DNA of 32,000 bases from Propionibacterium ruminifibrarum (lineage in GTDB: Bacteria > Actinomycetota > Actinomycetes > Propionibacteriales > Propionibacteriaceae): positions 236,697 through 268,696 of the forward strand of contig NZ_OMOH01000003.1 in the NCBI RefSeq assembly GCF_900289195.1. The letters are read 5' to 3'. A program made the position numbers and the translations under genes. Numbering within the stretch: position 1 is the first letter of the stretch; each line of letters begins with the position of its first letter. Shown one piece after another: positions 6,779 through 26,480 of the stretch. The notes beneath the pieces were generated by a model. That model ran no database searches and was not told the DNA's origin. It worked only from the letters and a program-made list of their open reading frames with translations.

Positions 6779-6899
6779 TGCGCCCAGTATAGGGCTGCGC
6801 CGGGCGGTGCACGAATGCCCCGGATGGGGCGACGGTCACCGCGGCTGCGGACAGGCGGTCGCCCGGTTCGTGCGTCCCGGCCCGCTCGGCCGGGGCCGG

Positions 6900-7250: not shown

Positions 7251-7514
7251 CTGGCCCTTCCTCATGATCGCCGACGAACCTTCGCATGACCGGCCGGGGG
7301 CCATGCCGAGACGATCGTCCCGGACGCTGCGCCGACCGGCCCGCGCGAGCACGGGCTCAGGGTCGCCCGGGTGAACGGGATCTGGTCGCGACGGTGACAA
7401 CCCTAGCTCCCCGCGCGTGCCGGGACCGATCGTGAGTCGCACCGGCCACGATGGTGCAGTGCAGGGGCTCTCGGCGCGAGCCGGGCGGGTCCGGGCTGGA
7501 ACGTCCCCAGTACT

Positions 7515-7528
7515 TTGATTATAATCAA
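7515..7528. promoter_or_regulatory. Perfect 14-bp palindrome TTGATTATAATCAA in an AT-rich island (candidate operator/promoter)
   Basis: The sequence is self-complementary and read directly. It sits in a short AT-rich island (about 7511-7550) between the divergent ArsR-family and flavin-oxidoreductase genes, and a further TTGAT half-site lies at 7531-7535. Confidence 0.4.
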
Positions 7529-7733
7529 AATTGATGTGGATCGAATTATCTGCGGTGTCCGGCCCCGGCACGTCATGACCGCCCACGGCCGGTTCTGGCC
7601 GGGAGTCGTCATGCTCCCGGCCCGCTCGTCCGGAGCGAAGTGCCGGACGCCGGCCCGCGCATCCCCTCCACGGAAACGAACAACCATCCGGACTCACTTC
7701 CTCCGGACTTACTTCACGAAAGACAGGACCCCC

Positions 7734-8876: not shown

Positions 8877-8957
8877 GCCCGCGCCGCGTGGGCCGGGCGC
8901 CGGGCCGCGTGGGGCACCCTCATGGTGGCGGTCCCGGGATGGTCTCCCGCCGCGGGA

Positions 8958-9863
8958 TCACAGGGTGATGAGTTCGCCGTGGCGGTGCGCCAGCCCGTCG
9001 GCCAGCAGGCCGTCCAGGGCGCGACGGGCCTGCGCCCGGTCCACGTCCCAGCAGCCGAGCAGCGTCTCGGTCTCGACGCCGGCCCGGTTGCGGCGCAGCT
9101 GGTCGAGCAGGCGGCCGCGGGCCTGACGGTCCGTGCCCGCGTACGCCTGCCCGCGCCGGGCCGGGCCCTCGTGGGCGGGCCGCCCTGCCGCCAGCCAGCG
9201 GCAGTGGCCGGCCACCGGGCAGTGGGCGCAGTCCGGGGCGGCCGCCGTGCACACCAGCGCCCCGAGTTCCATCGACGAGGCCGCCCAGCGGGCCGCGGTC
9301 GCGGCGTCCGCGGGCAGCCAGCGGGCCGCCAGCCGCCGTTCCGCGGCGGTCGTCGAGTTCGCCGGGTACTGCCTGCCCCGGTCGATGCGGGCCAGCACGC
9401 GCCGCACGTTCGTGTCCAGGACGACGGCCCGGGCGCCGAAGGCGAAACTGGCGATGGCGGCGGCGGTGTACTCGCCGACGCCCGGCAGCGCCCGCAACTG
9501 TTCGGGTTCGGCGGGCACCCGGCCGCCGTGGCGCGCGACGATTGCCACCGCCGCACCATGCAGGCGCAGGGCGCGGCGCGGGTAGCCGAGGCGCCCCCAC
9601 GCGGCGACGGCCTCACTCGACGGTTCGGCGGCCAGCGACGCCGGTTCGGGCCAGCGGCGCAGCCAGGCGCGCCAGGGCTCGATGACGCGGGCCACCGGTG
9701 TCTGCTGGGTCATGAACTCGCTGACCATCACCCCCCACGGGCCCACCGACGGGTCGCGCCACGGCAGCGGGCGCGCCGCGGTGGTGAACCACTGCGCGAC
9801 GGTCCCGACGATCCGGGCGCGCTCTGCGGGGCCTGGTGCGGCGGCGGGCTTGTCGGCGGGCAT
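8958..9863 (-). CDS. mutY: A/G-specific adenine DNA glycosylase MutY
   Basis: HhH-GPD motif LPGVGEYTAAAIASFAFG, catalytic VLDTNVRRVL, and 4Fe-4S ligands C-x6-C-x2-C-x5-C (CTAAAPDCAHCPVAGHC). Confidence 0.9.
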   Translation of the reverse strand: MPADKPAAAPGPAERARIVGTVAQWFTTAARPLPWRDPSVGPWGVMVSEFMTQQTPVARVIEPWRAWLRRWPEPASLAAEPSSEAVAAWGRLGYPRRALRLHGAAVAIVARHGGRVPAEPEQLRALPGVGEYTAAAIASFAFGARAVVLDTNVRRVLARIDRGRQYPANSTTAAERRLAARWLPADAATAARWAASSMELGALVCTAAAPDCAHCPVAGHCRWLAAGRPAHEGPARRGQAYAGTDRQARGRLLDQLRRNRAGVETETLLGCWDVDRAQARRALDGLLADGLAHRHGELITL

Positions 9864-12065: not shown

Positions 12066-12414
12066 GAGTCAAAGGTACGGGCCGGCACCGACATTCCCGG
12101 CCCGGCCCGGGGCGGGCCGCTCACCGCCGCACGTCGCCGGCCCATCCGCGCGCCGCGGCCGCCTCACCTGGGACCAGGTGTGCCTCAACACCCCCCGGGG
12201 CCTGTCCTCGCGCCCGCCGACGCCGCCACGCGAACCATCTCGACCACGAGCGGCGAGGACCCATCCGGTCGCGTGCCGGCGCACTGCTGCCATCGCCGGG
12301 CCGCCCGCCCGCGGGGTCCACTACCCTTGAGCGAGACCGGGCGGTGCGGGGCGGGCGCCGCGTGGTCGTTCGAGCCCAGTGGTGCCGCGGCACCCCGACA
12401 CGAGCGGAGCGGTG

Positions 12415-13332
12415 ATGCGACGGATGCTCATGCGCCTGTCACGGCTCGACGGTTTCCGCCGCCTGCTCGTCGAGGCTCCCGCGACCCGCGAACTGATCGG
12501 ACGCTACGTCGCCGGCGAGACGCTCGACGACCTCACCGAGGTGCTCGCCGACCAGCGGTACAAGGGCCTGGCGGTCAGCGTCGACGCGCTGCTGCCCGAG
12601 GCCGCCGGCGAAACCACGGCCGGCACCAATGAACGCTCCTACCTGGGCTGCCTCGACGCGCTCGCCGAGGCCGGGTTGAGCGCCGGCGCCGACATCAACG
12701 TCAAACCCTCCGCGCTCCTCGCCCCGGCGGGGGACCGCGAGGGGCTGTACGCCCGGCTGGCCCGCATCTGCGCCGCTGCGACCGGTGCGGGCGCCGACGT
12801 CACGGTCAACGTGGGCGGGCCGGACGAGGTCGAACCCGCCCTGGAGGTGACCGAGCGGCTGCGCGGGGACTTCCCGCGCACCGGCATCGTCCTGCTGGCC
12901 GGCCTGCGCCGCACCGAGTCCGACTGTCGGGCACTGGCCGCCGCCGGCGCCCGGGTCCGGCTGTGCAAGGGCGACAGGGGCGCCGGCCGCGACGTGTTCG
13001 GGAGCAGGCACGCCGTCGACCTGTCGTACGTGCGCTGCCTGCGCGTGCTCATGGCCTCCGGCGCCTACCCGGTCGTCGCCACCCACGATCCGCGGCTCGT
13101 CGAGATAGCCCTCGACCTGGCCGCACAGCACCACCGCGGACCGGCCGACCACGAGTTCCAGATGCTCTACGGGGTGCGCCCCCTCGAGCAGCGCCGCCTG
13201 GCCGACATCGGCCGGACGATGCGCACCTGCGTGCCCTTCGGCCCGGGCTGGTACGCCTACTTCCTGCAGCGCGTCGCCGACCACCCGGCCAACGGGGCGC
13301 TGTACGCCCGCAGCCTGCTGGGGCGGCGATGA
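12415..13332 (+). CDS. Proline dehydrogenase (monofunctional PutA-like)
   Basis: IGRYVAGETLDD, a TIM-barrel-like pattern through VATHDPRLV, and FQMLYGVRP are typical of proline dehydrogenases. The ATG at 12415 has GGAGCGG upstream. Confidence 0.85.
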   Translation: MRRMLMRLSRLDGFRRLLVEAPATRELIGRYVAGETLDDLTEVLADQRYKGLAVSVDALLPEAAGETTAGTNERSYLGCLDALAEAGLSAGADINVKPSALLAPAGDREGLYARLARICAAATGAGADVTVNVGGPDEVEPALEVTERLRGDFPRTGIVLLAGLRRTESDCRALAAAGARVRLCKGDRGAGRDVFGSRHAVDLSYVRCLRVLMASGAYPVVATHDPRLVEIALDLAAQHHRGPADHEFQMLYGVRPLEQRRLADIGRTMRTCVPFGPGWYAYFLQRVADHPANGALYARSLLGRR

Positions 13333-14156
13333 GCGTTCACGGAACGGCTGCGGAGCCGGCCGGCCGCGGCGCGGTGGTGGCCTCGGGTGCGACGGCCGCG
13401 CGGCGCCGCCCCCACCTGGGGCTGGAGACCCTCGGCGTGCTCGCCGTCTGCCTCGGCCAGTCGGCCGTCTACTCGGTGCTGTCGATCCTCAACAAGCTGA
13501 CACTGGGCCCGGCCCTCAACGAGCAGACGACCACCATCAACAACTCGGCGACCCCCGACCGGCCCTGGCTCGACCTCGCCTACAAACTGGCCGACTACCT
13601 CTTCCTCGCCGCGCCCGTGGTCATCGTCCTGTACCTGCTGGCCACCGTGTGGCGTCCCGGCCGTGACCCGTGGCGGGCCATCGGCCTGGACGCCGGGCGC
13701 CTGGGCCGCGACGCCACCATCGGCGCCGGACTGGCGGCGGCCATCGGCGTCCCCGGCCTGGGCTTCTACGTCCTCGCCCGATGGATCGGCATCAACACGA
13801 CCGTGGCGGCCGGCAACCTGTCGGAGCACGCCTGGACCGTCCCGCTCTACGTCCTGGCGGCCTTCGCGAACGGGCTGCTCGAGGAAACCGTCATGGTCGC
13901 CTATCTGCTCACCCGCTGGCGCCAGTGCGGCTGGCACCCGGGCGCCGCCATCGCGGTCAGCGCCCTGATCCGCGGCGCCTACCACCTGTACCAGGGCTTC
14001 GGCGGTTTCATCGGCAACGCCGTGATGGGCGTCGCCTGCTGCCTGTACTGGCGCCGAACGGGACGGCTGTGGCCGCTCGTCATCGCGCACACCCTGCTCG
14101 ACGTCGTCAGCTTCGTCGGATACGCCCTGCTGCACGACGCGGTGAGCTGGCTCTGA
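13329..14156 (+). CDS. CPBP-family intramembrane glutamic endopeptidase (CAAX protease-like)
   Basis: Polytopic membrane protein with the CPBP motifs LLEETVMVAYL (EExxx), RGAYHLY and AHTLLDV. Its ATG overlaps the proline dehydrogenase stop (ATGA at 13329-13332). Confidence 0.85.
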   Translation: MSVHGTAAEPAGRGAVVASGATAARRRPHLGLETLGVLAVCLGQSAVYSVLSILNKLTLGPALNEQTTTINNSATPDRPWLDLAYKLADYLFLAAPVVIVLYLLATVWRPGRDPWRAIGLDAGRLGRDATIGAGLAAAIGVPGLGFYVLARWIGINTTVAAGNLSEHAWTVPLYVLAAFANGLLEETVMVAYLLTRWRQCGWHPGAAIAVSALIRGAYHLYQGFGGFIGNAVMGVACCLYWRRTGRLWPLVIAHTLLDVVSFVGYALLHDAVSWL

Positions 14157-14210
14157 ACGGGACCGGCATCCACGGGGCGGCCCCAGCCCTCGGCACCGGG
14201 GGGCGCGTTT

Positions 14211-15260
<1,050 letters not shown>

Positions 15261-15262
15261 CG

Positions 15263-16102
15263 ATGACATCGGCACAGGAGACCCGGGCGGGAGAGGCCGC
15301 CGCCCCGCCCCGCCTGGGTTTCCTGGGTGCCGGCACCATGGGCGGCACCATCGTCGCCGGACTGGTCGCCTCGGGACACCCGGGTGAGCTGATCGGCGTC
15401 ACAAGCAGCACCCCGGCCACTCGCGAACGGCTCGCCGAGCAGCTGGGGGTGCGTCCCTTCGAGACCAACACCGGGGCCGCCGCCTGGGCCGACGTCGTCG
15501 TCCTCGGCGTCAAGCCCCATGCGGCCGGCGAACTCCTCGACGAGGTCCGCGCCCAGCTCGGCGACCAGAAACTCGTCATCAGCCTCTGCGCCGGACTGAC
15601 CACCGCGGCCCTCGAATCCCACCTCGATCCGGGGGCGCGCCTGGTGCGCGTCATGCCCAACACGCCCTCGGCCGTCGGAGCCGGCATGGCCGGCATCAGC
15701 GCCGGCTCCTGCGCCACCCGGGACGACCTCGACACCGCCGTCGCCCTGATGAGCGCCGTCGGCAGGGCCGTCGTGGTGCCCGAGTCGCAGCAGAACGCCC
15801 TCGCCGCCCTCAGCGGCTCCGGGCCGGCCTGGGTGTTCCACGGCATCGAGGCGCTCATCGAGGCGGGCGTCGCCCAAGGCCTGCCCAGGAGCCTCGCCAC
15901 CGAACTGGTCGTCCAGACCGTCAGGGGCTCGGCCCAACTGCTCGACGAGACCGGTCAGCACCCCTCCCTGGCCCGCGAGGCGGTCACCTCGCCCGGCGGC
16001 ACCACGGCGGCCGGGCTGCGCGTGCTCGACCAGCGGGCCGTGCGCGCGGCCGTCGTCGACGCGGTCGACGCCTGCGTCCGGCGCGCCGAGCAACTCGGCT
16101 GA
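15263..16102 (+). CDS. proC: Pyrroline-5-carboxylate reductase
   Basis: LGFLGAGTMGGTIVAGL NAD(P)-binding motif and VTSPGGTTAAGL C-terminal signature. It starts 2 nt after the asd stop. Confidence 0.95.
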   Translation: MTSAQETRAGEAAAPPRLGFLGAGTMGGTIVAGLVASGHPGELIGVTSSTPATRERLAEQLGVRPFETNTGAAAWADVVVLGVKPHAAGELLDEVRAQLGDQKLVISLCAGLTTAALESHLDPGARLVRVMPNTPSAVGAGMAGISAGSCATRDDLDTAVALMSAVGRAVVVPESQQNALAALSGSGPAWVFHGIEALIEAGVAQGLPRSLATELVVQTVRGSAQLLDETGQHPSLAREAVTSPGGTTAAGLRVLDQRAVRAAVVDAVDACVRRAEQLG

Positions 16103-16144
16103 GCCCCTCACACCGGAAAAATCCGACACGCAGGAAGCCGAATC

Positions 16145-16200
16145 GGAATTTTCCTACATGGAGTGTAGGAATTTTCCTACACTCCATGTAGGATTTTTCC
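16145..16200. repeat. Two 23-bp tandem units plus a partial third, equivalent to a perfect 17-bp inverted repeat. Probable proC terminator overlapping the promoter/operator of the next gene.
   Basis: Units: GGAATTTTCCTACATGGAGTGTA (16145-16167), GGAATTTTCCTACACTCCATGTA (16168-16190) and GGATTTTTCC (16191-16200). Arms CCTACATGGAGTGTAGG (16153-16169) and CCTACACTCCATGTAGG (16176-16192) are exact reverse complements with spacer AATTTT. The hairpin is followed by ATTTTTCC and then the ATG at 16201. A fourth GGAAAAATCC copy lies at 16115-16124. Confidence 0.85.
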
Positions 16201-18666
16201 ATGCCGGAGTACTCGTACCGCCCACGTGCCGTGGAGCAGGTCTTCGCCACGCGGGCCTCCCAGCAGGTGGCGATCCTCGAGGGGCGTCGTGCAGTGGGCA
16301 AGTCGAGCCTGGCCCGACACCTGGTCGAGGCGGGTACCTATGCGAGCTATCAGTCACTCACCGAACCCGATGTGCTCAGGAGCGCCGGAGCCGATCCCGG
16401 TCGGTGGGTCCGAACACTCGAACTCCCGGCGGTGATCGACGAGGCACAGCTCGTTCCCGGGGTGAGTCTTGCCGTGAAGGAGCTCGTCGACGAGTTGCCG
16501 CCGGGACACCACTTTCTCCTCACGGGTTCCGCCAGTGTGGGGCGCGGCACGATGGCGGGTTCGGATCCGCTCACCGGGAGGTCGGTACGGATCCGCTTGG
16601 ACCCGTTCGCCGCGCTGGAACTCGGCGCTCACCCGGATCAGGCAGTGCCGTCGATCGTCGACATCCTGTTCGACGCCGAGTTCCATGGCGAGAGCGTTGG
16701 CATGAGTGAGCAGGCCGAGCTGTGCGCCGTGCTGCGTACCGGTGGGATTCCCGCCTACTGCCTGCCCGCTGTGCGGCTCACGCGCAGCGCCCTCAACGCC
16801 AGGGTGGCATCGGACAACCTGGCGATCCTCGGTGAACAGCTGCTGCCGGGCGAACGTCTCGACCCCGGTATCGCCCTGCGCGTCCTCGACTCGGTGCTGA
16901 GAATCCCCGCAGGCCAGCTCAACCGCACCCGGCTTGCGCAGGAGCTCGGCGTGAACCACCAGACGATCAGCCGCTACCTGGGCATTCTCGAACGCAGATT
17001 CATGATCACCGAACTGCCCAACATCAGGGCCGGGGCCTCCAAGGCCGGCCGGGCCGCGCCCAAGGTGCACGGCGTTGACTCGTCCCTGGCCTGCGAGGCA
17101 CTGGGTCGCGCAGGACACGACGTCGAAACCAGTCCGGAACTGCTCGGCCAGACCTTGGAGACCTGGGTCTTCACCCAGATCAATGCGGCACGCGGCTGGT
17201 CGCGTCTACCCGCGGACATCTTCTACTGGCGTGACAACAAGACCCGGCGGGAAGTCGACATCGTCCTGGTCGATGGGCAAGGCCGAAGGGTCGGGGTCGA
17301 GGTGAAACTGGCCACCTCGGTCTCGTCCGCCGACCTGAAGGGGCTGCGTGCCATGGCCGATCCCAGTCATGGCGGCCTGCACCGCGGGTTCGTCGTGTAC
17401 ACGGGCAGTCGTTGTCACCGGCTCGACGAGACCACTTGGGCGCTTCCGCTGGCGGTGCTGCGCTCGCAGGACGCACTGCGCCGCATCGTGGCCACGGACG
17501 ATCCGGCTCAGGAGACGCAGCCGGTACGAGCGTCGATTCACCATCCGAGAGGTACGGCCATGGTCAATGATGGAGCGAACCGGGTACAGGCGGCGGGACA
17601 CGATGCCGCGGAGACGATCTTCCTCAGCTATGTGCACGCCGACGATGATGTCCTGGACGGCGGCATCACCGAGTTCGCCCGCCAGGTCAAGCAGGCGACC
17701 GAGTTCAACCTGGGGCGCCCGATCGAACTCGTCATCGACCGCGACGTGCTGGGCTGGGGCGCCGACTGGAAGAAGACCCTGCAGGAACAGGTGGCGCGCA
17801 CGACGTTCCTGCTCGCCATGGTGACACCCGGCTACGTCAGATCGCCGGCCTGCCAGGAGGAGTTCACCTTCTTCGCAGCGAGAGGCGCGGCCCAGGAGTA
17901 CGACGGGCTGCTCACCCTGCTGGTGAGGGACCCGCGATGGGACGCCCCGGACATCGTCGACAACCCGGTGTGTCAGGAGATTCACGAGACGATCGACAGC
18001 CGCCAGTGGCTCGAACAGCCTCTTGAGGACCTGGCGGTCGGCACGCCCGAGTTCAAGAAAGCAGCCAGGGCCGTAGCCGAGGCCCTGACCCAGCGCATCA
18101 TCGACCTTGAGCGGCGTGTCCCGAGAACCGAAGCACGCGGCCTGGCGGACAACGACGATGACGGTGACGGCCTGGTTGAGATCATGGACAGGCTGCAAGA
18201 CGAGTACTTCCCGGATCTGACCGCCCAGACAGACCGCTTCACTGCGGCGTTGAGTGATTTCGGCATCAGGTTCGCGCGGGAGATGAACCGGATTCCATCG
18301 GGGGGCCTACCCACCGCGAAGACCCTTGTCTTGGTGGCCCACAACTGCGAAGGGCCCCGTGAAGAACTCGATGCGGCGGCGGACGAGTTGAGTCGGGCCT
18401 GGAAACAGACCAGCGATGGGCTCTCCAGGGCTGTCTCGCGCCTTCGCGAGCTGGATCAGAAGGACCAGGTCGAACAGATGAAGCAGGAACTCACCAGTAT
18501 CACGTCGGGGCTCGATGCCGGTTCCCTGGACGAGATGCAGACGATGGTGAACCAGATGGGGCTGCTCTCGGCATCGCTGAAACCGACGGGCCGGACGCTG
18601 TCGAAGGCTCTCTCGATCATGACGTCGATCAGGGGCTCTGCGGAGGCCTGGGTCGAACAGCTGTGA
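16201..18666 (+). CDS. Fusion protein: COG1373-type ATPase (AAA_14 + DUF4143 wHTH + PD-(D/E)xK-like module), TIR domain and C-terminal helical domain
   Basis: A single 821-aa ORF. The N-terminus MPEYSYRPR, Walker A GRRAVGKSS (16282-16305) and Walker B VIDEAQ (D80 at 16438) fit the ATPase. The wHTH is NRTRLAQELGVNHQTISRYLGILERRFMI. The nuclease-like motif is YWRD..REVD(353)IVLV..VGVE(367)VK(369). The TIR-like block spans residues about 471-612: IFLSYVHADDD, GWGADWKKTLQEQVARTTFLLAMVTPGYVRSPACQEEF (matching the S-x-W-C-x-x-E catalytic helix pattern, Glu554 at 17860-17862). Residues about 613-821 are helical with no recognised motif. Confidence 0.8.
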   Translation: MPEYSYRPRAVEQVFATRASQQVAILEGRRAVGKSSLARHLVEAGTYASYQSLTEPDVLRSAGADPGRWVRTLELPAVIDEAQLVPGVSLAVKELVDELPPGHHFLLTGSASVGRGTMAGSDPLTGRSVRIRLDPFAALELGAHPDQAVPSIVDILFDAEFHGESVGMSEQAELCAVLRTGGIPAYCLPAVRLTRSALNARVASDNLAILGEQLLPGERLDPGIALRVLDSVLRIPAGQLNRTRLAQELGVNHQTISRYLGILERRFMITELPNIRAGASKAGRAAPKVHGVDSSLACEALGRAGHDVETSPELLGQTLETWVFTQINAARGWSRLPADIFYWRDNKTRREVDIVLVDGQGRRVGVEVKLATSVSSADLKGLRAMADPSHGGLHRGFVVYTGSRCHRLDETTWALPLAVLRSQDALRRIVATDDPAQETQPVRASIHHPRGTAMVNDGANRVQAAGHDAAETIFLSYVHADDDVLDGGITEFARQVKQATEFNLGRPIELVIDRDVLGWGADWKKTLQEQVARTTFLLAMVTPGYVRSPACQEEFTFFAARGAAQEYDGLLTLLVRDPRWDAPDIVDNPVCQEIHETIDSRQWLEQPLEDLAVGTPEFKKAARAVAEALTQRIIDLERRVPRTEARGLADNDDDGDGLVEIMDRLQDEYFPDLTAQTDRFTAALSDFGIRFAREMNRIPSGGLPTAKTLVLVAHNCEGPREELDAAADELSRAWKQTSDGLSRAVSRLRELDQKDQVEQMKQELTSITSGLDAGSLDEMQTMVNQMGLLSASLKPTGRTLSKALSIMTSIRGSAEAWVEQL

Positions 18667-20185
18667 CTCCCGGCTCGGGGATCCGGTCGACCGGGGCCGT
18701 TCGGTGCGACATGTCCTCGAACAGCTCCCGCACTCGGACGAAGTCGGCGCGCACGTCCACCTCCTCGCGGACGCCACCGTCGGCCAGGTGAATGAGCCTG
18801 TCGCAGGCCGCTGCGATCAGTTCCAGGTCGTGGGTGATGACCAGCACCACCCGGTCGGCCGCGAGACGGCGCAGCAGGGCCGCGACGCGCTGCACGGCGT
18901 CGCGGTCGAGGCCGCTCGTCGGCTCGTCGAGGACGACGAGCCGTTTGCCGCCGGCCATGGCCGTGGCCACCGCCAGTCGCTGCTTCTGGCCGCCGGACAG
19001 TGTCGCCGGGTGTCGAGGGCCCAGGCCGGCCAGGTCGAGCCCGTCCAGCAGCCCGGCCACGTCGACGTCCTGCGGCCGGGCCAGCCCGAAGGTCACCTCA
19101 GCGTCGACGGTCTCGGCGAACATCTGCTGTTCGACGTGCTGGAAGACCATCGCGGCGTGGCGCGGCAGGACGCGCCGCGAGACCGGGGCGCCCTCGACGA
19201 GGATCCGCCCGGCATCGGTGCGGACCAGCCCGCACAGCGCTCGGCCGAGCGTCGTCTTCCCCGCGCCGTTGGCTCCGGTGAGGGCGACCACCTCGCCCGG
19301 GCACAACCGAACGTCCACGCCGGCGAGCACCTGCCGTCCGCCGCGCCGCACCGACAGGCCGGCGGCCCGCAGCCATGGCCGCCCCGGACCGCCATGGCCG
19401 CGGGGCGGTGGGGGAGCGGGTCGGATACCGCCCGCCGAACGGGCCCGCAGGCCCATGGCCGTGACGTCCGCATCGCTGAGTTCCGCGAACTCGTCGGAGT
19501 CCAGGACCCGGTCGACCCGGCCGCCGGACAGGACGCAGTAGCGATCGGCCAGCCCGGCGAGCCAGGAGAGCCGGTGCTCGGCGACCAGGACCGCGCAGCC
19601 GGCGGCCTTGGCCCTGGCCACGCAGTCACGCAGGTCACGCACCGCTCCCGGATCGAGATTGCCCGTCGGCTCGTCGAGTACGAGGGTCCCCGGTCGCATC
19701 GCCCACGCCGAGGCGAAGACCACTCGCTGCAGCTGACCGCCCGAGAGTTCGAACAGACTGCGCCCCGCCAGCCCGCGCAGCCCCAGCTCGTCGATGACCT
19801 CACCGGCGCGTGCCCGCATCCGCTCGGCCGGCCATCCGGCGCTCTCCATGCCGAAGGCGATCTCGCTCGTCGTGTCGGTGGTGAAGAACTGGGTGGTCGG
19901 GTTCTGAAAGACCGAGCCGACCCGTTCGGCGAGCTGCCACGACGTCAGCTGCGCGACGTCCTGGCCGTCGAGGAGCACCCGGCCGCTCAGCGTCCCGGGG
20001 AAGAACGACGGGGCCAGCCCGTTCGCCAGACGGGTGATCGTCGTCTTCCCGCAGCCCGATCGCCCGCACACGACGAGCACCTCACCGGGGCCGACCGTCA
20101 GCGTGATGTCACGCACCCCTGCGCCACCCTCGTGGCCCGTGCCGTGGTGCGCATAGCTGAAACAGGCGTCGCGGAACTCGATCAT
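18629..20185 (-). CDS. ECF transporter duplicated ATPase (fused EcfA-EcfA')
   Basis: MIEFRDACFSY start. Walker A GRSGCGKTT and GANGAGKTT, signatures LSGGQLQRV and LSGGQKQRL, Walker B LVLDEPT and VVLDEPT. The ATG at 20185 overlaps the T-component stop (ATGA). The upstream part of ORF 18629..20800 is an artefact. Confidence 0.9.
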   Translation of the reverse strand: MIEFRDACFSYAHHGTGHEGGAGVRDITLTVGPGEVLVVCGRSGCGKTTITRLANGLAPSFFPGTLSGRVLLDGQDVAQLTSWQLAERVGSVFQNPTTQFFTTDTTSEIAFGMESAGWPAERMRARAGEVIDELGLRGLAGRSLFELSGGQLQRVVFASAWAMRPGTLVLDEPTGNLDPGAVRDLRDCVARAKAAGCAVLVAEHRLSWLAGLADRYCVLSGGRVDRVLDSDEFAELSDADVTAMGLRARSAGGIRPAPPPPRGHGGPGRPWLRAAGLSVRRGGRQVLAGVDVRLCPGEVVALTGANGAGKTTLGRALCGLVRTDAGRILVEGAPVSRRVLPRHAAMVFQHVEQQMFAETVDAEVTFGLARPQDVDVAGLLDGLDLAGLGPRHPATLSGGQKQRLAVATAMAGGKRLVVLDEPTSGLDRDAVQRVAALLRRLAADRVVLVITHDLELIAAACDRLIHLADGGVREEVDVRADFVRVRELFEDMSHRTAPVDRIPEPGVTAVRPRPPQSP

Positions 20186-20931
20186 GCGTTCACCCGCAGC
20201 ACGATGGCGAGCACGAGGACAACGATCCCCGGGGCCGTGGCGAGAACGTCGACCCTGCCGAAACCGATGGGCGTGCAGCAGGTACGGCGCGCCGGGTTCT
20301 CGATGCCACGCGCCACGGCCGCCATCGACAGCTCGTCGGCCGCCGTCGAGGCGCTCATCAGTAGCGGAACGTAGACGCACTCGATGGTCCGCACCGGATG
20401 GCGCACCAGGGTGATCGGGCCGGGGCCGATGCCCCGCAGTCGCATCGCGTCCCGGATCGACGCCCAGTCCGCACGCACCGTCGGCGCATAGCGCAGCATG
20501 ATGGCCAGTGGGACCACCACCTGACGGGGCAGCCGCAGCGCGTTCAGCGCGCTCATGAACTCGCCGACCGGTGTCGTCGACACGGTGACCGCGGCGACGA
20601 GGCCGCACGGCAGCACCGTGCGCATCAGGGCGCCGAAGGAACCGAGCATGGTCCGCAGCGCCACGTGGTCGAGGCGGGGTACGCCCTGCAACGCGGCCAT
20701 CATCGCCGCGTACCCTGCCAACCCGACCAGCCCCATCCTCGGGCGGCGCAGCACCAGTGCGAATACCGCTGCCGCGCCCATGACGACGAGATCGAACCAC
20801 ACCGCCGGGCTGAGTGCCGTCGCGGCGGCCACGGCCAGCAGGACGAACAGTTTGCTGCGCGGATCGGCCGACCCGGTGCGCCGTGCGCCCGGCCCGGGCG
20901 GCTCGTCCGCTCTCCCGGATCGGACGCTCAC
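20182..20931 (-). CDS. ECF transporter T component (EcfT/CbiQ-like)
   Basis: 249-aa polytopic protein (LFVLLAVAAATAL..., ...AAVARGIENP ARG-type motif). The GTG at 20931 overlaps the S-component stop (GTGA). Confidence 0.8.
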   Translation of the reverse strand: MSVRSGRADEPPGPGARRTGSADPRSKLFVLLAVAAATALSPAVWFDLVVMGAAAVFALVLRRPRMGLVGLAGYAAMMAALQGVPRLDHVALRTMLGSFGALMRTVLPCGLVAAVTVSTTPVGEFMSALNALRLPRQVVVPLAIMLRYAPTVRADWASIRDAMRLRGIGPGPITLVRHPVRTIECVYVPLLMSASTAADELSMAAVARGIENPARRTCCTPIGFGRVDVLATAPGIVVLVLAIVLRVNA

Positions 20932-21554
20932 CTGGCCGTCACTCCCGCCTTCTCGAACTGGCGTCGCAGGAGGCGGCGGCCGAGCAGGCCGCTGATGAGT
21001 GCGCAGCCGAGAATGCTCGCGATCATCGCCGGGAACATCCACCCGACCCCGGTGGCGAGCATCGTGTCCATGTAGGCCTGTTCGGTGCCCCTGCCGACGA
21101 GATAGGCGGCGTACGAGTCGGGGCTGAGCCACAGCATCGCGTACGAGCCGAGCGGGTTGAGGCTGAACAGCATGAAACTGAGCAGGTTCAGCCCCTGGCT
21201 GCGAAAGCCACCGGCCCCCGCGACGAGATCGCCGACGAACCCTGCGACGACGTAGGTGACGGCCCAGCCCCAGTACATGCCGGTGACGAACATGATCAGG
21301 CCGAGGACGGCGCCGACGATGACGACCGGCCCGTGCTTGGGCACCTTGGCGATGAGCAGCAGGTAGACCGGGCCCGTCAGCAGGGCCACGGCCGCGGGCA
21401 TGGCGAAGGTGAGCACGGGGTTGGGGGCGAGCAGGGCGCCGCCGGCCATGGTGAAGAACAGCATGAGGGCGGCGAAGACGCCACACGTGATGAGATCCCT
21501 GGCCGTGAGTCGTCCGGCGGTGCTCGCGGCGGGCGCAGTGCGGGAGGTCAACAT
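20928..21554 (-). CDS. ECF-type S component / integral membrane substrate-capture protein, specificity unknown
   Basis: 208-aa, roughly 6-TM protein. It is the first gene of an S-T-A operon joined by overlapping stops and starts. A strong SD AAGGAG lies 5 nt upstream of the ATG at 21554. Confidence 0.7.
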   Translation of the reverse strand: MLTSRTAPAASTAGRLTARDLITCGVFAALMLFFTMAGGALLAPNPVLTFAMPAAVALLTGPVYLLLIAKVPKHGPVVIVGAVLGLIMFVTGMYWGWAVTYVVAGFVGDLVAGAGGFRSQGLNLLSFMLFSLNPLGSYAMLWLSPDSYAAYLVGRGTEQAYMDTMLATGVGWMFPAMIASILGCALISGLLGRRLLRRQFEKAGVTAR

Positions 21555-21707
21555 GTCCGCTCCTTGATTGAGGTGAGGCTAAACTGATCCGGTCGGGTCA
21601 GCCTAGGAACGCCCCGCCCCGCCGGTCGGGTCGGGGCGGCGACCGGTGTCCGAACCGATCACGGGCGCGTCCCATCACCACAACGGGCAGGAACAGGAGG
21701 GGCGACG

Positions 21708-22667
21708 GTGGCGTTCTTCCAGCGCTCCCAGGTGGGTCAGAGCGGCTTCGTGCCCACCGGCGCACCCGGCTTCGGCCCGGGCTGGGAGAGCTTCACCGCC
21801 GACAACCGGCGCCTGCGGGGCCTGTTCCACTCCTTCGCCCCCGACGACGCCGAATGGGCGATCACCATCCATGACTTCGCCCTCACCCGAGACAGCAGAC
21901 TGCGGTTCGAGCTGCCCCACTATCTGACGGCGTGCTGGTTCGAGTCGATCGCGGGCCGTCAGCTCACCCCGCGCCGGCCGCTGCGCGCCAACAGCATCTG
22001 GGGTCACTGGACCGGCGACGGCCTGTGGGAGGGCATCGTCCGCGGCGCCGTCCCGATCCGCGCGGTGTCCATCGAGGTGAGTCCCACGTTCTCGGCCCGC
22101 TTCCTCGATGCCGAGTACCCCGGACAGTTCCGTGACGTGGCCGACGCCTTCCGCTGCCTGGGGCTGGAGGACGACTTCCCCGACCTGAAGAACCTGCTCG
22201 CCGAGCTGTGGCCACAGCCGCACGACGCCCCGCGCGGTCGCCTCCACTACGAGGCGAAGGTCCTCGAGGCGATGGGCATGATCGTCGAGCACACCCGCGG
22301 GGCCGCGCAGGGGACCCGGCTGCGCAGGGCGGACGTGGAGACCCTGCACGCCGTCGTCGCCTACATCGACGAACACCTCGACCGGCAGCTGCGCATCGAC
22401 GAGTTGTCCCGGATGGCCTGCATGAGCCCCACCAAGTTCAAGGCCGACTTCCGCGCCGCCAATGGGTGCACGGTGGGGCAGTACATCCAGGCGAGCCGGA
22501 TGAGCCGGGCCGAGGTGCTGCTCAGACATTCGGACATGACGATCGGACAGGTCGGACGTCAGGTCGGCTACCACTGCGCGAGCCGCTTCTCGCAGCTCTT
22601 CAAACGCGAGAAGGGCATGCTGCCGAGCGAGTTCCGGCGTGCCCGGACGCAACCAGGAGCCCCCTGA
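21708..22667 (+). CDS. AraC/XylS-family transcriptional regulator
   Basis: C-terminal double HTH: LRIDELSRMACMSPTKFKADFRAANGCTVGQYIQASRMSRAEVLL...IGQVGRQVGYHCASRFSQLFKREKGMLPSEFR. GTG start at 21708 with AGGAGG 7 nt upstream. It is divergent from the ECF operon. Confidence 0.9.
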   Translation: MAFFQRSQVGQSGFVPTGAPGFGPGWESFTADNRRLRGLFHSFAPDDAEWAITIHDFALTRDSRLRFELPHYLTACWFESIAGRQLTPRRPLRANSIWGHWTGDGLWEGIVRGAVPIRAVSIEVSPTFSARFLDAEYPGQFRDVADAFRCLGLEDDFPDLKNLLAELWPQPHDAPRGRLHYEAKVLEAMGMIVEHTRGAAQGTRLRRADVETLHAVVAYIDEHLDRQLRIDELSRMACMSPTKFKADFRAANGCTVGQYIQASRMSRAEVLLRHSDMTIGQVGRQVGYHCASRFSQLFKREKGMLPSEFRRARTQPGAP

Positions 22668-22836
22668 CAAGGAAGAACACTCGCCGAGAAGTGACCGGCG
22701 AGCCTGCGGCGAGGCGGCTCTGAGCGCTGCGGCCGCGGCCTGCGGCAGCTCTTGACCAGCGGTCTAGCGTCACGAGAAACCGTCCCGGCCCGGTGGGCCC
22801 CGGGAGGGTCCGTCAACAGGCTTGGAGCGTGGTCAG

Positions 22837-24600
22837 GTGGGGTTCTGGGAGCTGGTTCGCCCCGTGCGGGGGCAGGTGGTGGCGGGAACAGCCCTGCAGG
22901 GGCTCGGCGCACTCGCCGCCCTGGTGCCGATGGCCGCGATCGTCGAACTGTCCGGGGTGCTCATCGCCGGTGGTGCGGGGTCGACGGCCTGGCGCTGGCT
23001 GCTGGTGGCGGTCGGCGGCGTCATCGCCCGCATGGCGCTCACCGGCGCCGGCGCCGTCGTCCTGCATTTCGCCGACTCGGCGCTCGCCGCCGATCTGCGA
23101 CTGCGACTTTCGGCCCAGCTGTCCCGCATACCGGTGGGCCAGGCCCGCTCCGTCGGCTCGGGGCGGCTGCTGAAACTCGTCTCGGACGACGTGGCGGCGC
23201 TCCACACGCTCGTCGCCCACGCATCCGGAGACACGGTCGTCGCCGTCGTCACCGCCGTCGGCGCATTCGGCCTGCTGGCCCGATACGCCTGGCCGCTGGC
23301 CCTGGTGGCGCTCGTTCCGGTCCTCGGTTTCCTCGGGGTGTTCGGCGCCATGATGGGCAGGGCCGTGTCCCAGTTCGACCAGTACGACGAGGCCCGGGGC
23401 CGGTTGAACGCCGCGACCACCGAGTTCACCCGAGGCGTCTACGTGGTCAAGACCTTCGGGCGTGCCGGGCACGCCTCGGAGCAGTACGCCCGGGCGGTCG
23501 ACGACTACGCGAGGTTCTACGGTCGGTGGATGGGGCCGATGATCACGAGTTCGGCCCTGGGCCTGGCGATCGTCTCCGCCCCCAGCGTGCTCGCCGTCAT
23601 GGGCCTGAGCGCCCTGGCGATGGTCCGGGCCGGCCGTGTCGACGTCACCGGGGCGGTGGCGGGCCTGGTCCTCGGTATCGGCCTGGCCATCCCGCTGACC
23701 CAGATGGACGGCTACAGCGTCAAGCTCAGGGCGGCCCGCGAGGCCGCTGCGCGGATCGGGGCCTTCCTGGCGGCCGAACCCCTGCCCGTCGACACCGACC
23801 CGGTGCCTGCCGAGTGGGGCGAGGGGGGCGATGTGGAACTGCGCGAGGCGCGTCTTCGGTACGAGCCCGGTGCCCCCGAGGCGGTGTCCGGCGTCAGCCT
23901 GCACATCCTGCCCGGCACGGTGACGGCCCTCGTCGGCCCCTCCGGCGCCGGGAAATCGAGCTGCGCCGGTCTCATCCCCCGGTTCTGGGACCCCACCGGC
24001 GGCCGGGTGCTCCTCGCCGGCACCGACCTGAGGCGGTACCGCGTCGAGGACCTGCACCGCCACGTCGACTTCGTCCTGCAGGACGGGCGGCTCCTGCCGC
24101 TGAGCCTGGCCGAGAACATCTCTCTCGGCAGGCCCGGCGCCGGTCAGCAGCAGGTCGAGGACGCGGCCCGCCGCGCCGGGATCCACCAGCGAATCTGCGA
24201 GCTGCCCCGCGGTTATGACTCGGTGCCCGGCGTCGACGCCCTGCTGTCGGGCGGCGAGAGCCAGCGGGTGGCAGTCGCCAGGGTGCTGCTCGCCGGGGCG
24301 CCGGTCCTGCTGCTCGACGAGGCGACCTCGTACGCCGACCCGGAGAACGAGGTACTGCTGCAGCAGGCCCTCTCCACCGCCGCGCGGGGCCGCACCGTCC
24401 TCGTCATCGCCCACCGTCTGGCTGCCGTTCAGGACGTGGACAGCATCGTCGTCCTGGACGAGGGCCGGGTGGCCCAGCAGGGCACTCATGACGAACTGCT
24501 GGACCGGGACGGGCTCTACCGGCGGCTCTGGCGGATGCAGGGGGCCGGGTCTGCGGACCCGCTGTCCGGCCCCGGCGACGGGCAGGAGACGACACGATGA
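22837..24600 (+). CDS. ABC transporter fused permease/ATP-binding protein (type I exporter fold), heterodimer partner 1
   Basis: 6-TM N-terminal domain plus NBD (Walker A GPSGAGKSS, signature LSGGESQRVAVAR, Walker B LLLDEATS). The start is uncertain: GTG at 22837 (GGAGCG 7 nt upstream) or TTG at 22822. Confidence 0.85.
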   Translation: MGFWELVRPVRGQVVAGTALQGLGALAALVPMAAIVELSGVLIAGGAGSTAWRWLLVAVGGVIARMALTGAGAVVLHFADSALAADLRLRLSAQLSRIPVGQARSVGSGRLLKLVSDDVAALHTLVAHASGDTVVAVVTAVGAFGLLARYAWPLALVALVPVLGFLGVFGAMMGRAVSQFDQYDEARGRLNAATTEFTRGVYVVKTFGRAGHASEQYARAVDDYARFYGRWMGPMITSSALGLAIVSAPSVLAVMGLSALAMVRAGRVDVTGAVAGLVLGIGLAIPLTQMDGYSVKLRAAREAAARIGAFLAAEPLPVDTDPVPAEWGEGGDVELREARLRYEPGAPEAVSGVSLHILPGTVTALVGPSGAGKSSCAGLIPRFWDPTGGRVLLAGTDLRRYRVEDLHRHVDFVLQDGRLLPLSLAENISLGRPGAGQQQVEDAARRAGIHQRICELPRGYDSVPGVDALLSGGESQRVAVARVLLAGAPVLLLDEATSYADPENEVLLQQALSTAARGRTVLVIAHRLAAVQDVDSIVVLDEGRVAQQGTHDELLDRDGLYRRLWRMQGAGSADPLSGPGDGQETTR

Positions 24601-26342
24601 TCCGCACCATCAGCGCTCTCGTGCGCCTGGCCGGTACCGGGGCCCGTCCGCGCCGCTATCTCGTGCTCGTCATCGCCTACGGTCTCGCCCAGGGCCTGGC
24701 CCTCGTCTCGCTCGTGGCGTTCATCGACGCCCTCGTACGTTCCGACTGGGGACAGGCCCGGGTGAGGGCCGTCGTGCTGCTCGCCCTGGCCGTCGTCTCG
24801 GCCGTCCTGTGCTACCTGCAGGCACGCGCCGGGTATGCCATCTCGCTCGCCATCATGCGGGCTCTCCAGCACCGCATCGGCGACCACGCGGCACGCCTGC
24901 CGCTCGGCTGGTTCGGACGCTCGCGGCCGGGTGAACTCGTCCAGCTCGCGACGGCAGGCGCCGAGACGGTCGGATCCACCACCGCCCACCTCGTCGAGCC
25001 GATGCTCTCGGCGGTCATCGCCCCCGCGGTCGTCGTCGTGGGGCTGGTCTTCTGGGACTGGCGGGTGGCCCTGGCCGGCGCCGTGTTCGTTCCACTCGTC
25101 GGCGTCATCGGGCGTCTCGTGCCGCGACTGAACGCCCGCGCCGATGCGCTGCTCGACGAGGCGGCCTCCGAGGTCAACGGCGCGGTCATCGACTTCGCGC
25201 TCGACCAGCCGCTGCTTCGCTCGACCGGGCGAATGGTCGGTTCCTATCCGCCGCTGGACGAGGCGCTGGACGATTACGCGCGTGCCCACCGGAACAACCT
25301 GTGGCGCACCCTGCCGGGGCTGCTCGTCAACTCGGTCGCCGTCCAGGCCTGGCTCGTCCTGCTGCTGGCCGTGACACTCGCCCAGGCGCTCGGCGGGGCC
25401 CTGTCGGTGCCGGCGGCGATCGGCCTGCTCGTCGTCTCGGCCCGCTTCGTCGATCCCCTCGCCCAGCTGTCCGAGTACGCCACGGCGCTGCGAGCCTCGG
25501 CCGACGCGCTGGGCCGCAGCCAGTCGTTCCTGGCGACGCCGGTGCTGCCCGAACCGGTCGTTCCCGCCGCGCCCGACGCGTCGGCCGGGATGTCTGTCGT
25601 GCTCGACGACGTCGCCTTCGGTTACGCCGATGACGGCCCGCGCGTTCTGTCGGGCGTCGACCTGGTGGCCCGGCCCGGCACGATGACCGCTCTCGTGGGC
25701 CCCTCCGGCGCGGGGAAGACGACGATCCTGCGTCTGATCGCCCGCTTCTGGGACGTGACCGGCGGTTCGGTGCGCATCGGCGGCGTCGATGTCCGTGACC
25801 TCGGCTCGGAGACGGTGATCGACCAGGTGTCCATCGTCTTCCAGGACGTCTACCTGTTCGAGGGGTCGATCCGCGACAACGTGCGGCAGGGTCGCCCCGG
25901 GGCCGGCGACGAGGAGATCCGGCGGGCCATGGCCGCCGCGCGGGTCCTCGAGATCGGCGAGCGGCTGCCGGACGGTCTCGACACCCAGGTGGGGGAGGGC
26001 GGCGCCAGGCTGTCCGGTGGCGAACGCCAGCGGGTCTCCATCGCCCGAGCCCTGCTCAAGGACGCGCCGATCGTCCTGCTGGACGAGGCGACGGCCTCCG
26101 TCGACGCCGAGAACGAGGTGGCCCTGGTGGAGGCCTTCCGGGCGCTGGTCAGGGACCGCACCGTCATCGTCATCGCCCACCGGCTCGAGACCATCGCCGG
26201 AGCCGACCAGATCTGCTTCCTCGAGGCCGGGCGGGTCGTCGAGCGTGGCCGGCACGACGAACTACTCGCGGCAGAAGGCCGTTACGCGGCCTTCTGGCGG
26301 GCCAAGACCCGGGCGTCCTCGTGGCGGCTCGGGGCGCCGTGA
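24597..26342 (+). CDS. ABC transporter fused permease/ATP-binding protein, heterodimer partner 2
   Basis: The ATG overlaps the upstream stop (ATGA at 24597-24600). TMD plus NBD (GPSGAGKTT, LSGGERQRVSIAR, VLLDEATAS). Confidence 0.9.
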   Translation: MIRTISALVRLAGTGARPRRYLVLVIAYGLAQGLALVSLVAFIDALVRSDWGQARVRAVVLLALAVVSAVLCYLQARAGYAISLAIMRALQHRIGDHAARLPLGWFGRSRPGELVQLATAGAETVGSTTAHLVEPMLSAVIAPAVVVVGLVFWDWRVALAGAVFVPLVGVIGRLVPRLNARADALLDEAASEVNGAVIDFALDQPLLRSTGRMVGSYPPLDEALDDYARAHRNNLWRTLPGLLVNSVAVQAWLVLLLAVTLAQALGGALSVPAAIGLLVVSARFVDPLAQLSEYATALRASADALGRSQSFLATPVLPEPVVPAAPDASAGMSVVLDDVAFGYADDGPRVLSGVDLVARPGTMTALVGPSGAGKTTILRLIARFWDVTGGSVRIGGVDVRDLGSETVIDQVSIVFQDVYLFEGSIRDNVRQGRPGAGDEEIRRAMAAARVLEIGERLPDGLDTQVGEGGARLSGGERQRVSIARALLKDAPIVLLDEATASVDAENEVALVEAFRALVRDRTVIVIAHRLETIAGADQICFLEAGRVVERGRHDELLAAEGRYAAFWRAKTRASSWRLGAP

Positions 26343-26365
26343 CGCTCGCCGGCCGACGGCGAGCG
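26343..26365 (+). terminator. Hairpin immediately after the ABC operon stop (possible U-tail-less terminator)
   Basis: CGCTCGCCG (26343-26351), loop GCCGA, then CGGCGAGCG (26357-26365). This is a perfect 9-bp stem with no U tract. Confidence 0.35.
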
Positions 26366-26480
26366 CCGGCCACCATGGTGTGCCCGGCCCGTCCATGCAG
26401 CGGCCACGCGCCCGCTTTCAGGCGGGTCGCCGGGGGTGTCGCAGGGCCCGCCCGCGCGGTGTCCACGGCCGCCGAGGATT

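Follow-up and report, generated by a model that had tools for sequence, protein, structure and literature searches.

PDC-S01, an ATPase fused to a PD-(D/E)xK domain, has been proposed as a defence candidate and is the fourth most common predicted defence in prokaryotes, with ∼39,000 instances in a 2026 survey; most of the PDCs have yet to be validated by experiment, and no test of PDC-S01 was reported (PMC12988326). It originates as a 'phage defence candidate' in a guilt-by-embedding study (bioRxiv 10.1101/2024.01.29.577857). DUF4143/COG1373 is counted among the PD-(D/E)xK families of unknown function (PMC3424549). Here we describe a gene of Propionibacterium ruminifibrarum in which this scaffold is joined in frame to a TIR domain and a helical tail. 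The gene lies in a stretch of 32,000 nt (contig NZ_OMOH01000003.1, positions 236,697 to 268,696 of the forward strand; hereafter the window), where it occupies positions 16201–18666 of the + strand as one open reading frame (ORF) of 821 aa without interruption. An identical P. ruminifibrarum protein has already been deposited under the name 'TIR domain'.

A TIR domain and a helical tail appended to the PDC-S01 scaffold

We compared the protein with the PADLOC models and observed that residues 6–422 match the PDC-S01 profile hidden Markov model (HMM) PDLC04790 over its full length (E 6.9e-78, 260 bits, HMM positions 11–419 of 422), and that five other PDC-S01 models also match. The order of AAA+ ATPase, winged helix-turn-helix (wHTH) and PD-(D/E)xK domain in a single gene is that of PDC-S01, and AAA_14 and DUF4143 are both present with intact Walker motifs and an intact D-E-K triad. 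However, PDC-S01 proteins are of ∼400 aa and have no further effector domain, whereas the P. ruminifibrarum protein has an extra 400 aa in which TIR and tail are appended; it is therefore an extended variant of PDC-S01 and not a typical member. An earlier reading of this DNA, made from its letters only (hereafter the sequence-only reading), had known of no described system built on the COG1373/DUF4143 scaffold. The PADLOC check that it had proposed corrected this point, as the scaffold is catalogued there as candidate PDC-S01, while the TIR fusion itself was not described in the literature that we searched for DUF4143+TIR, COG1373 and AAA_14+TIR. New at this locus are the TIR fusion on a catalogued scaffold, the helical domain associated with the TIR and the phased operator, which is conserved.

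The fusion is a real, conserved, single gene. A protein search recovered ∼80 protein clusters having the same three Pfam domains at 27–52% identity, from Actinomyces, Arachnia and metagenomes, and a scan of one genome per species placed the full-length fusion at >40 genome loci, with the identity across the family ranging from 27 to 76%. The same architecture in so many clusters and genomes rules out an assembly or sequencing fusion of two genes, a possibility that the sequence-only reading had raised against itself. Within the Actinomycetota, the fusion occurs in Propionibacteriales, Actinomycetales, Micrococcales, Bifidobacteriales and Coriobacteriia; outside, we found single Chloroflexota and 'Oscillospiraceae' contigs of metagenome-assembled genomes (MAGs) and one Mesorhizobium entry. 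No split two-gene version was found apart from P0088, which is most likely a frameshift in a metagenome contig of 2.8x coverage and, because of this, was not used as Rosetta-stone evidence. An uncultured Atopobiaceae MAG (OZ006999) has two copies of the fusion, at ∼611012 and ∼624258 (L023 and L024), which are ∼13.2 kb apart and have identical match statistics.

The three-module architecture claimed in the sequence-only reading held in the profile-HMM searches as well as in the structural model, and every motif that it had named was present in the translation at the residue given. All three Pfam profiles that it had singled out matched, namely AAA_14 at residues 21–140 (E 3.9e-12), DUF4143 at residues 225–370 (E 1.1e-27) and TIR_2 at residues 473–601 (E 3.4e-7; 31.2 bits, with the gathering cutoff at 28); residues 640–821 matched no Pfam family. 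The AlphaFold2 model of the full protein, built on an alignment of 51 sequences, had a mean predicted local distance difference test score (pLDDT) of 84.9, and disorder was confined to the linkers 433–468 and 640–654.

In the ATPase core, the Walker A motif GRRAVGKSS spans G28–S36 (K34 is encoded by nt 16300–16302), the Walker B motif VIDEAQ spans V78–Q83 and includes D80 and E81, and LLTGSAS, R115 and R127 are further conserved. Foldseek matches of the N-terminus in the PDB were RuvB, ORC/Cdc6 and the clamp-loader delta subunit. The label 'STAND-like' that had been attached to this ATPase has to be dropped, as its fold is that of a classical AAA+ protein, joined to a wHTH and lacking a repeat sensor: the best folds were RuvB and ORC-type AAA+, no repeat domains were found, and the only STAND-type match was nSTAND3 with an E of 0.091 over 34 residues at the P-loop. 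The wHTH (LAQELGVNHQTISRYLGILERRF) is modelled as helices 242–249 and 253–265 followed by a beta hairpin, and its recognition helix reads N252-HQTISRY in the P. ruminifibrarum protein and D-x-R-T-[VI]-x-R-Y in the family. The next domain is modelled in the order alpha-beta-beta-beta-alpha-beta, which fits a PD-(D/E)xK member, with D353 kept on strand 2 and E367 and K369 kept on strand 3. A PD-(D/E)xK nuclease fold is thus modelled here, and its activity is a prediction only. The C-terminal half is modelled as a TIR-like alpha/beta domain (472–612) followed by long helices up to the C-terminus.

The TIR-like domain that the sequence-only reading had placed at about residues 471–612 was borne out by the TIR_2 match above the gathering score and by Foldseek, which matched this region with a probability of ∼1.0 to >20 TIR structures of the PDB, including L6, SNC1, RPS4, RPP1, Roq1, SPARTA TIR-APAZ, AbTir, BtpA and TLRs. 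The TIR-like FxsC_Nterm of NCBIfam gave a sub-threshold match (E 4.7e-8). The domain has the flavodoxin-like fold of TIR NAD+ hydrolases, its first strand is IFLSYVHADDD, and the helix after strand C carries the catalytic-type motif S548-P-A-C551-Q-E-E554, where E554 is encoded by the codon GAG at nt 17860–17862. NADase TIRs use the last Glu of S-x-W-C-x-x-E for catalysis. When a TIR-only family profile was compared with the PDB sequences, Cat1 was the best match (E 1.8e-5), and L7/L6, AtTIR and Roq1 matched as well; the family sequence Y-l-k-S-e-a-C-r-d-E aligns on YLKSDWCWDE of Cat1, YADSKWCLME of L6, YAASSWCLDE of AtTIR and YASSTWCLEE of Roq1. This alignment supports the assignment of E554 to the position of the catalytic Glu, as had been claimed, and E554 is invariant in the 51 sequences.

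The other predicted active sites are kept to a comparable extent. Columns that do not vary among the 51 aligned sequences include D80, E81, Q83, D353, E367, F474, S476, Y477, D481, G505, D513, W523, S548 and E554, and K34, K369 and C551 are kept in at least 90% of the sequences. From this conservation of the catalytic columns, we concluded that all three predicted active sites are under purifying selection.

The tail had been described as a helical region from about residue 613 onwards with no recognised motif. Modelled on its own (652–821), it is a confident bundle of five to six helices (pLDDT 90.8, predicted template modelling score 0.84), and its start is refined to residue 652. It has no Pfam, NCBIfam or PADLOC family, no evident hydrophobic segment and, by Foldseek against the PDB, no significant neighbour, the best E being 0.14 and the matches being bundles of a generic kind, for instance designed proteins and soluble toxins of the ClyA family. 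A ClyA-type pore-former, a ZorA tail and an apolipoprotein were considered and rejected as compositional or generic bundle likeness (Foldseek E ≥0.14, TM-score <0.5). Conserved residues of the tail are W734, the turn S790-x-x-L-x-P795 and W817.

An exhaustive profile search of 1.84 billion representatives with the tail yielded 489 proteins, 111 of them below 1e-10; a word-indexed search with the same profile yielded one fragment only. These proteins are either fusions of ∼800 aa or shorter proteins of ∼330–400 aa, in which the tail lies at ∼residues 185–365. TIR_2 was found in 38 of the 46 sampled matches of ∼330–660 aa, and their consensus shows the same TIR motifs. Some of the short ones are pieces of fusions, either fragments or halves split off by a frameshift. 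Genuine standalone TIR-tail proteins are those of Rhodococcus erythropolis (WP_019744624) and Tsukamurella paurometabola (WP_212554975) and two Actinomadura proteins. The R. erythropolis and T. paurometabola genes (L093:8001–10549 and L096:6353–8913) lie at the integrase-proximal edge of integrative elements, which encode a tyrosine integrase convergent with the TIR-tail gene, a resolvase and, nearby, a Prim-Pol/DUF3987 or AAA_25 replicase; the TIR-tail unit is therefore a portable cassette carried as mobile-element cargo. The tail is, as judged from this distribution, a putative TIR-associated domain family that has not been described. We also considered a fusion of PDC-S01 with PDC-S66 and rejected it: in the relatives, the PDC-S66 HMM matched no more than the TIR part, and weakly, and the C-terminal half of the P. 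ruminifibrarum protein has no PDC-S66 match even at E 10, so that it is not a PDC-S66 member.

Among the described TIR proteins, Cat1 (CRISPR-associated TIR 1; PDB 9mud), SPARTA TIR-APAZ, AbTir and the TIRs of the plant TNLs (L6, RPP1, Roq1) share with the P. ruminifibrarum protein the TIR fold, the aligned Glu in the S-x-x-C-x-x-E helix and the tethering of the TIR to a module able to oligomerise. However, it has no CARF, pAgo/APAZ, NB-ARC or LRR, carries an Ala for the Trp and a family-specific tail after the TIR, and its sequence similarity to them is weak (E 1.8e-5 at best). TIR-STAND/Avs-like and bacterial NLR-like proteins also combine an NTPase switch and a TIR effector in one polypeptide encoded by a solitary gene, but here the switch is an AAA_14-type AAA+ with a nuclease fold instead of NACHT or NB-ARC, there is no TPR, LRR or WD40 array, and the TIR is C-terminal where theirs is N-terminal. 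Thoeris (ThsB TIR plus ThsA) likewise has a bacterial TIR in which the catalytic Glu is conserved. The ThsB HMMs are matched weakly by relatives of the standalone TIR-tail proteins; the P. ruminifibrarum protein has no match to the ThsB HMMs of PADLOC, and no ThsA-type gene (SIR2, TM or Macro with SLOG) was found in the window or in the inspected homologous loci. Likewise, no APAZ/pAgo match or neighbour was found in the window or the inspected loci, and only the TIR part resembles the SPARTA structure 8qlp, so that the protein does not belong with SPARTA or the short pAgos.

A phased palindromic candidate operator upstream of the gene

The sequence-only reading had noted that the gene has its own repeat-rich control region. 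We observed an array of 23-nt units over the start of the gene (Table 1), which is also an inverted repeat of 27 nt (16145–16171 with 16174–16200) and is conserved across the homologous loci. The first two units each carry a one-mismatch copy of the family palindrome ACAT-N3-ATGT, which is also written TACAT-N3-ATGTA, has a period of 23 nt and lies on the promoter in two to three repeats. The 14-mer of the operator occurs nowhere else in the window; three matches were counted there against 0.02 expected. The same kind of element is present 5′ of the homologues in other genera, despite their differing neighbours.

To quantify this, we counted the matches to ACAT-N3-ATGT with at most one mismatch at positions −150 to +30 of the start. 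At 42 fusion loci there were 1.02 matches per 180 nt compared with 0.017 elsewhere in the same loci (∼60-fold), and at 32 loci having the N-terminal module only there were 1.41 compared with 0.022 elsewhere (∼60-fold). Adjacent copies were exactly 23 nt apart in 32 of the 34 pairs, and the consensus of 85 motif instances was AttTTtgTACATnnnATGTAcaAtTtT, i.e. AttTTtgTACAT-nnn-ATGTAcaAtTtT. The candidate operator, present with or without the TIR, goes with the ATPase-nuclease module rather than with the TIR.

In ∼18–20 homologous loci, the right arm of the last copy forms TAnnnT, mostly 6–7 nt (range 5–9) 5′ of the start codon, and no Shine-Dalgarno sequence is present. A generic sigma-70 scan found nothing. 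This geometry is that of a leaderless actinobacterial promoter, and the gene may well be expressed as a leaderless mRNA from a promoter inside the operator.

The recognition helix D-x-R-T-[VI]-x-R-Y is kept where the operator motif is present, and the motif is absent from the loci with another recognition helix (L001, L044, L062 and L064). L001, L064 and L046 have other upstream repeats in place of TACAT-N3-ATGTA: in Actinomyces radicidentis (L001, 9960–10000), whose recognition helix is divergent, CTATCGAT occurs twice, and in L046, which keeps the canonical R-T residues of the helix, TACAGAATTATTT occurs twice at a spacing of 23 nt. The repeats of L001 and L046 could be respecified operators. 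The protein's own wHTH probably binds the array and represses its own promoter. Phased repeats over the promoter of a gene for a predicted wHTH binder are an arrangement resembling the autorepressed loci of the BrxR/CapW-type WYL proteins and the iteron pairs of plasmid Rep and archaeal Orc1/Cdc6-ORB; unlike in those, the predicted repressor here would be a domain of the effector itself, and there are no origin or replicon functions.

Table 1. Features of the P. ruminifibrarum gene and its upstream region (positions in the window)
Feature	Position	Strand	Detail or basis
Candidate operator array	16145..16213	+	three 23-nt units GGAATTTTCCTACATGGAGTGTA / GGAATTTTCCTACACTCCATGTA / GGATTTTTCCATG...
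−10-like hexamer TAGGAT (TAnnnT)	16189..16194	+	right arm of the last operator palindrome, 6 nt 5′ of the ATG
AAA+ ATPase core and helical lid, residues 1–220	16201..16860	+	Pfam AAA_14, invariant columns, Foldseek, PDC-S01 match
Winged helix-turn-helix, residues 222–272	16864..17016	+	MarR_2, HTH_11 and Crp-type matches; model
PD-(D/E)xK nuclease-fold domain, residues 294–422	17080..17466	+	DUF4143; D353, E367, K369; model
Disordered linker of variable length from the PDC-S01-like module to the TIR, residues 433–468	17497..17604	+	pLDDT <50; gappy and unconserved in the alignment
TIR domain (residues 471–612) and next helix (613–640)	17611..18120	+	TIR_2, FxsC_Nterm, Foldseek, HMM alignment
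C-terminal helical-bundle tail, residues 652–821, then stop codon	18154..18666	+	tail-only model; profile search

Gene loss and genomic neighbourhood

The sequence-only reading had placed the gene inside an accessory insertion and had regarded its features as consistent with horizontal acquisition. We compared the locus with those of two other Propionibacterium species, and the claim of an insertion failed. From 12304 to 18679, the window aligns collinearly with P. acidifaciens; the identity is 83%, equal to that of the flanks, and the P. acidifaciens copy (strain DSM 21887, L010:10001–12472) is the closest homologue, with 76% identity and a frameshift near residues 215–266; it could be a pseudogene or an error of the draft assembly. 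Upstream of this copy, the ACAT motif is lost and a perfect 25-nt hairpin abutting the ATG is kept. In P. australiense, proC (91% identical) is directly followed by the ECF ATPase gene; its nucleotide homology to the window extends across the operator as far as 16227 and starts again at 18707, so that ∼2.48 kb is missing, and an orphan operator of two 23-nt units (GGAAAATTCCTACAGCGAGTGTAGG / GATTTTCCTACAGCGAGTGTCC) remains between proC and the ECF ATPase gene (LR134442, L097:10880–10935). As the operator remains at the empty site, this is a deletion and not an empty insertion site. A recent horizontal insertion was therefore rejected: together, the synteny in P. acidifaciens and the deletion in P. 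australiense indicate that the gene is ancestral to the three species and is being lost. The atypical codon usage that had been taken as consistent with acquisition stands only modestly, the G+C content at third codon positions being 0.81 for the gene and 0.82–0.96 (mostly 0.87–0.96) for the other ORFs of the window that passed the coding filter.

Similar decay was observed elsewhere in the family. Pseudogenes are frequent, with frameshifts in L010, L039, L054 and L090; the proteins of Rothia nasimurium/nasisuis and of a Micrococcaceae MAG (L073, L079, L085) have ∼600 aa, with a degenerate TIR-like domain without S-x-x-C-x-x-E and with the tail absent, and that of Mobiluncus mulieris (L022) has a catalytic-looking intact TIR and ends before the tail. 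In a rough neighbour-joining tree of the N-terminal module, made without bootstrap, N-only lineages lie inside the fusion lineages at no fewer than four places (at least 4) and the basal branches are fusions, which suggests an old fusion with repeated loss of TIR and tail. Deletion, frameshifts and TIR degeneration or loss are a pattern typical of costly accessory genes. Among the GenBank records of phages, we found only matches to the N-terminal module, 22–27% identical and on unannotated metagenomic contigs, and the fold matches in BFVD were to generic AAA+ or TIR-like folds only. Relatives of the N-terminal module are present in 217 plasmid records, and TIR or tail on none of them.

The fusion gene is solitary at every locus inspected; its neighbours differ by genus, and there is no conserved partner. 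L005 is a defence island with AbiEi, McrBC, AAA_21+RloB and AAA_15, and PADLOC, applied to 242 ORFs in the flanks of 22 loci, recovered Gabija, Cas3, type I restriction-modification, RmrA, IetA, PDC-S08 and PDC-S28, with a strong MTase_I match in the flank of the Rothia locus L033. The association with defence islands that the sequence-only reading had proposed to test thus holds for some members of the family, which lie beside defence genes at L005 and in the flank scan, but not for this window. In Actinomyces massiliensis, the neighbours include YoeB/Phd, an SLFN-type ATPase and a second gene of the AAA_14/DUF4143 type. That second gene (L007:8686–10000; also L008 and L009) has the N-terminal module only, encodes 376 aa and is divergently oriented to the fusion gene; a palindromic repeat array (9923–9976 of L007) sits in the 185-nt intergenic region common to both genes, and the YoeB/Phd pair is immediately downstream.

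In the window itself, the surroundings are housekeeping genes: clpC, aroD, an ECF transporter, a mutY/nth-like gene, radA, a putA-like gene, a CAAX protease, asd and proC, with the ECF transporter, AraC, ABC exporters and cobA-hemD on the 3′ side of the gene. Contrary to the statement that the gene is a singleton on its strand, asd (14223–15260) and proC (15263–16102) lie directly upstream on the + strand. The 3′ end of the ORF overlaps the convergent ECF-transporter ATPase ORF (18629–20194, − strand) by 38 nt (18629–18666), and the C-terminus of this ATPase differs from its P. australiense counterpart exactly at the deletion boundary. Three other parts of the window also differ between the species. 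The stretch 6806–8958, with a G+C content of 0.65 and an ORF for an OYE-type NADH:flavin oxidoreductase (7407–8876, + strand), occurs in neither P. acidifaciens nor P. australiense; 22769–26114, with two tandem ABC exporter genes (22768–24600 and 24492–26342, + strand), is absent from P. australiense; and the whole of 18680–26406 is absent from P. acidifaciens at this locus.

Proposed mode of action and its alternatives

We propose, giving it about an even chance of being right, that the gene is an autorepressed single-gene system against mobile elements, probably an anti-phage system of the abortive-infection type, in which a TIR NADase is activated through assembly driven by ATP and DNA. The N-terminal 422 residues (AAA+, wHTH and PD-(D/E)xK) would bind DNA. 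In the resting state, the wHTH would sit on the TACAT-N3-ATGTA array over its own promoter and keep the expression low. Upon infection, a nucleic-acid or protein cue would trigger the ATPase module to form an ATP-dependent oligomer, probably on DNA; the oligomer would bring the C-terminal TIRs together for E554-dependent hydrolysis of NAD+, and DNA cleavage at the PD-(D/E)xK site may serve as a second effector function. Oligomerisation is required for activity in the TIR NADases of SARM1, plant TNLs, AbTir, SPARTA and Cat1. The helical tail may be a regulatory or assembly domain that regulates or nucleates the assembly of the TIRs, and we place it with the TIR because the TIR-tail cassette also occurs alone as cargo of integrative elements. 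In favour of the proposal we count the conserved fusion with its catalytic residues kept, the end-to-end match to PDC-S01, the TIR fold with its aligned Glu, the lack of a conserved neighbour, the defence islands at some loci, the repeated loss, the operator that travels with the gene and the standalone TIR-tail genes of integrative elements. Autorepression, leaderless transcription, assembly-driven activation of the TIR, NAD+ as the substrate and the defence role are what we infer here.

Several observations weigh against this proposal. PDC-S01 is itself a predicted candidate without a validated function. No other defence gene was found in the window, where all the neighbours are housekeeping genes; the survey of defence neighbours is qualitative and has no matched control, and defence neighbours are absent from five of the eight loci for which precomputed annotation was available. 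An Ala replaces the Trp that most NADase TIRs have in S-x-W-C-x-x-E. The covariation of recognition helix and operator (odds ratio 9.8, Fisher p 0.017) is without phylogenetic correction. In addition, 16152–16193 together with a T-run scores terminator-like and may also end the asd-proC transcript; to regard the upstream hairpin as merely the proC terminator is nevertheless insufficient, as it accompanies the gene in unrelated contexts. A search of IMG/VR found no relatives; this weighs neither for nor against defence, but provides no link to phages.

The two halves may instead be autonomous immune modules, where the ATPase-nuclease is its own sensor and DNA cutter, the TIR-tail is triggered separately with the tail as its sensor, and the fusion only serves to co-regulate and co-transfer them. 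This would agree with the N-only relatives, which share the operator, occur intact in many genomes and are nested in the fusion clade, with the TIR-tail proteins that occur alone on integrative elements, with the long disordered linker between the halves and with the invariant nuclease triad, which is therefore probably catalytic rather than vestigial. We think it unlikely, however, as the fusion has remained stable from 27% to 76% identity with its domain order fixed, the halves were not found as two genes bar the apparent frameshift, and known TIR effectors generally rely on an assembly platform. Signalling in cis has a still lower probability in our view. Like in Thoeris, the TIR would make a cyclic ADP-ribose-type or other nucleotide for the protein's own PD-(D/E)xK nuclease, with the tail possibly binding the ligand, or it would act as a 2′,3′-cyclic nucleotide monophosphate synthetase on nucleic acid, an activity reported for plant TIRs, where the Cys has a role. 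No known nucleotide-sensor domain (SLOG, Macro, CARF, SAVED or another) was detected in profile searches of the protein, no pocket-forming protein is related to the tail, and the standalone TIR-tail genes have no nuclease partner beside them; these absences have to be set against the conserved catalytic Glu and neighbouring Cys551, the DNA-binding module in the same chain, and the PDB matches, among them Cat1 and the TIR-dsDNA complexes of L7 (7x5k and 7x5l).

A role outside immunity is very unlikely, although iteron-like repeats in a 23-nt phase beside an AAA+-wHTH gene do recall an autoregulated DNA-binding ATPase for housekeeping or for the maintenance of a mobile element, initiator-like or partition-like on such repeats, with the TIR as a protein-interaction domain. 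The housekeeping neighbours in the window and at several homologous loci, the synteny in two species and the common occurrence of N-module relatives on plasmids would fit. But a scaffold would not need the invariant TIR Glu and nuclease triad, the gene is patchily distributed, being deleted or a pseudogene even in sister species, it is not accompanied by replication, partition or transfer genes, the repeats number only two to three and lie on the promoter, and defence genes adjoin it in several genera. There is also a slim chance that the operator DNA is an allosteric 'off' ligand in addition to a transcriptional brake, so that the protein, parked through its wHTH, fires the TIR and the nuclease when a phage displaces it. 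The displacement would come from degradation of the host DNA, from a DNA mimic or from takeover of transcription, similar sites might possibly be occupied as well, and the AAA+ modules would assemble by themselves once off the DNA. If true, this would make the COG1373/PDC-S01 family DNA-anchored guard switches with pluggable effectors such as the TIR-tail.

Returning to the autorepressed, assembly-driven system that we favour, the in-frame fusion to a TIR with its catalytic Glu kept is independent evidence, by fusion, for a role of the PDC-S01 scaffold in immunity, and it suggests that this scaffold is an assembly switch able to drive an effector. The phased palindromic operator is a concrete predicted DNA ligand for the wHTH of the family, and the TIR-tail cassette defines a putative TIR-associated domain that was hitherto undescribed. 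The three Propionibacterium species are natural controls, with the gene intact, frameshifted, or deleted with an orphan operator left behind. Taken as such, the locus offers a mechanistic handle on PDC-S01, a very abundant family without a known mechanism.

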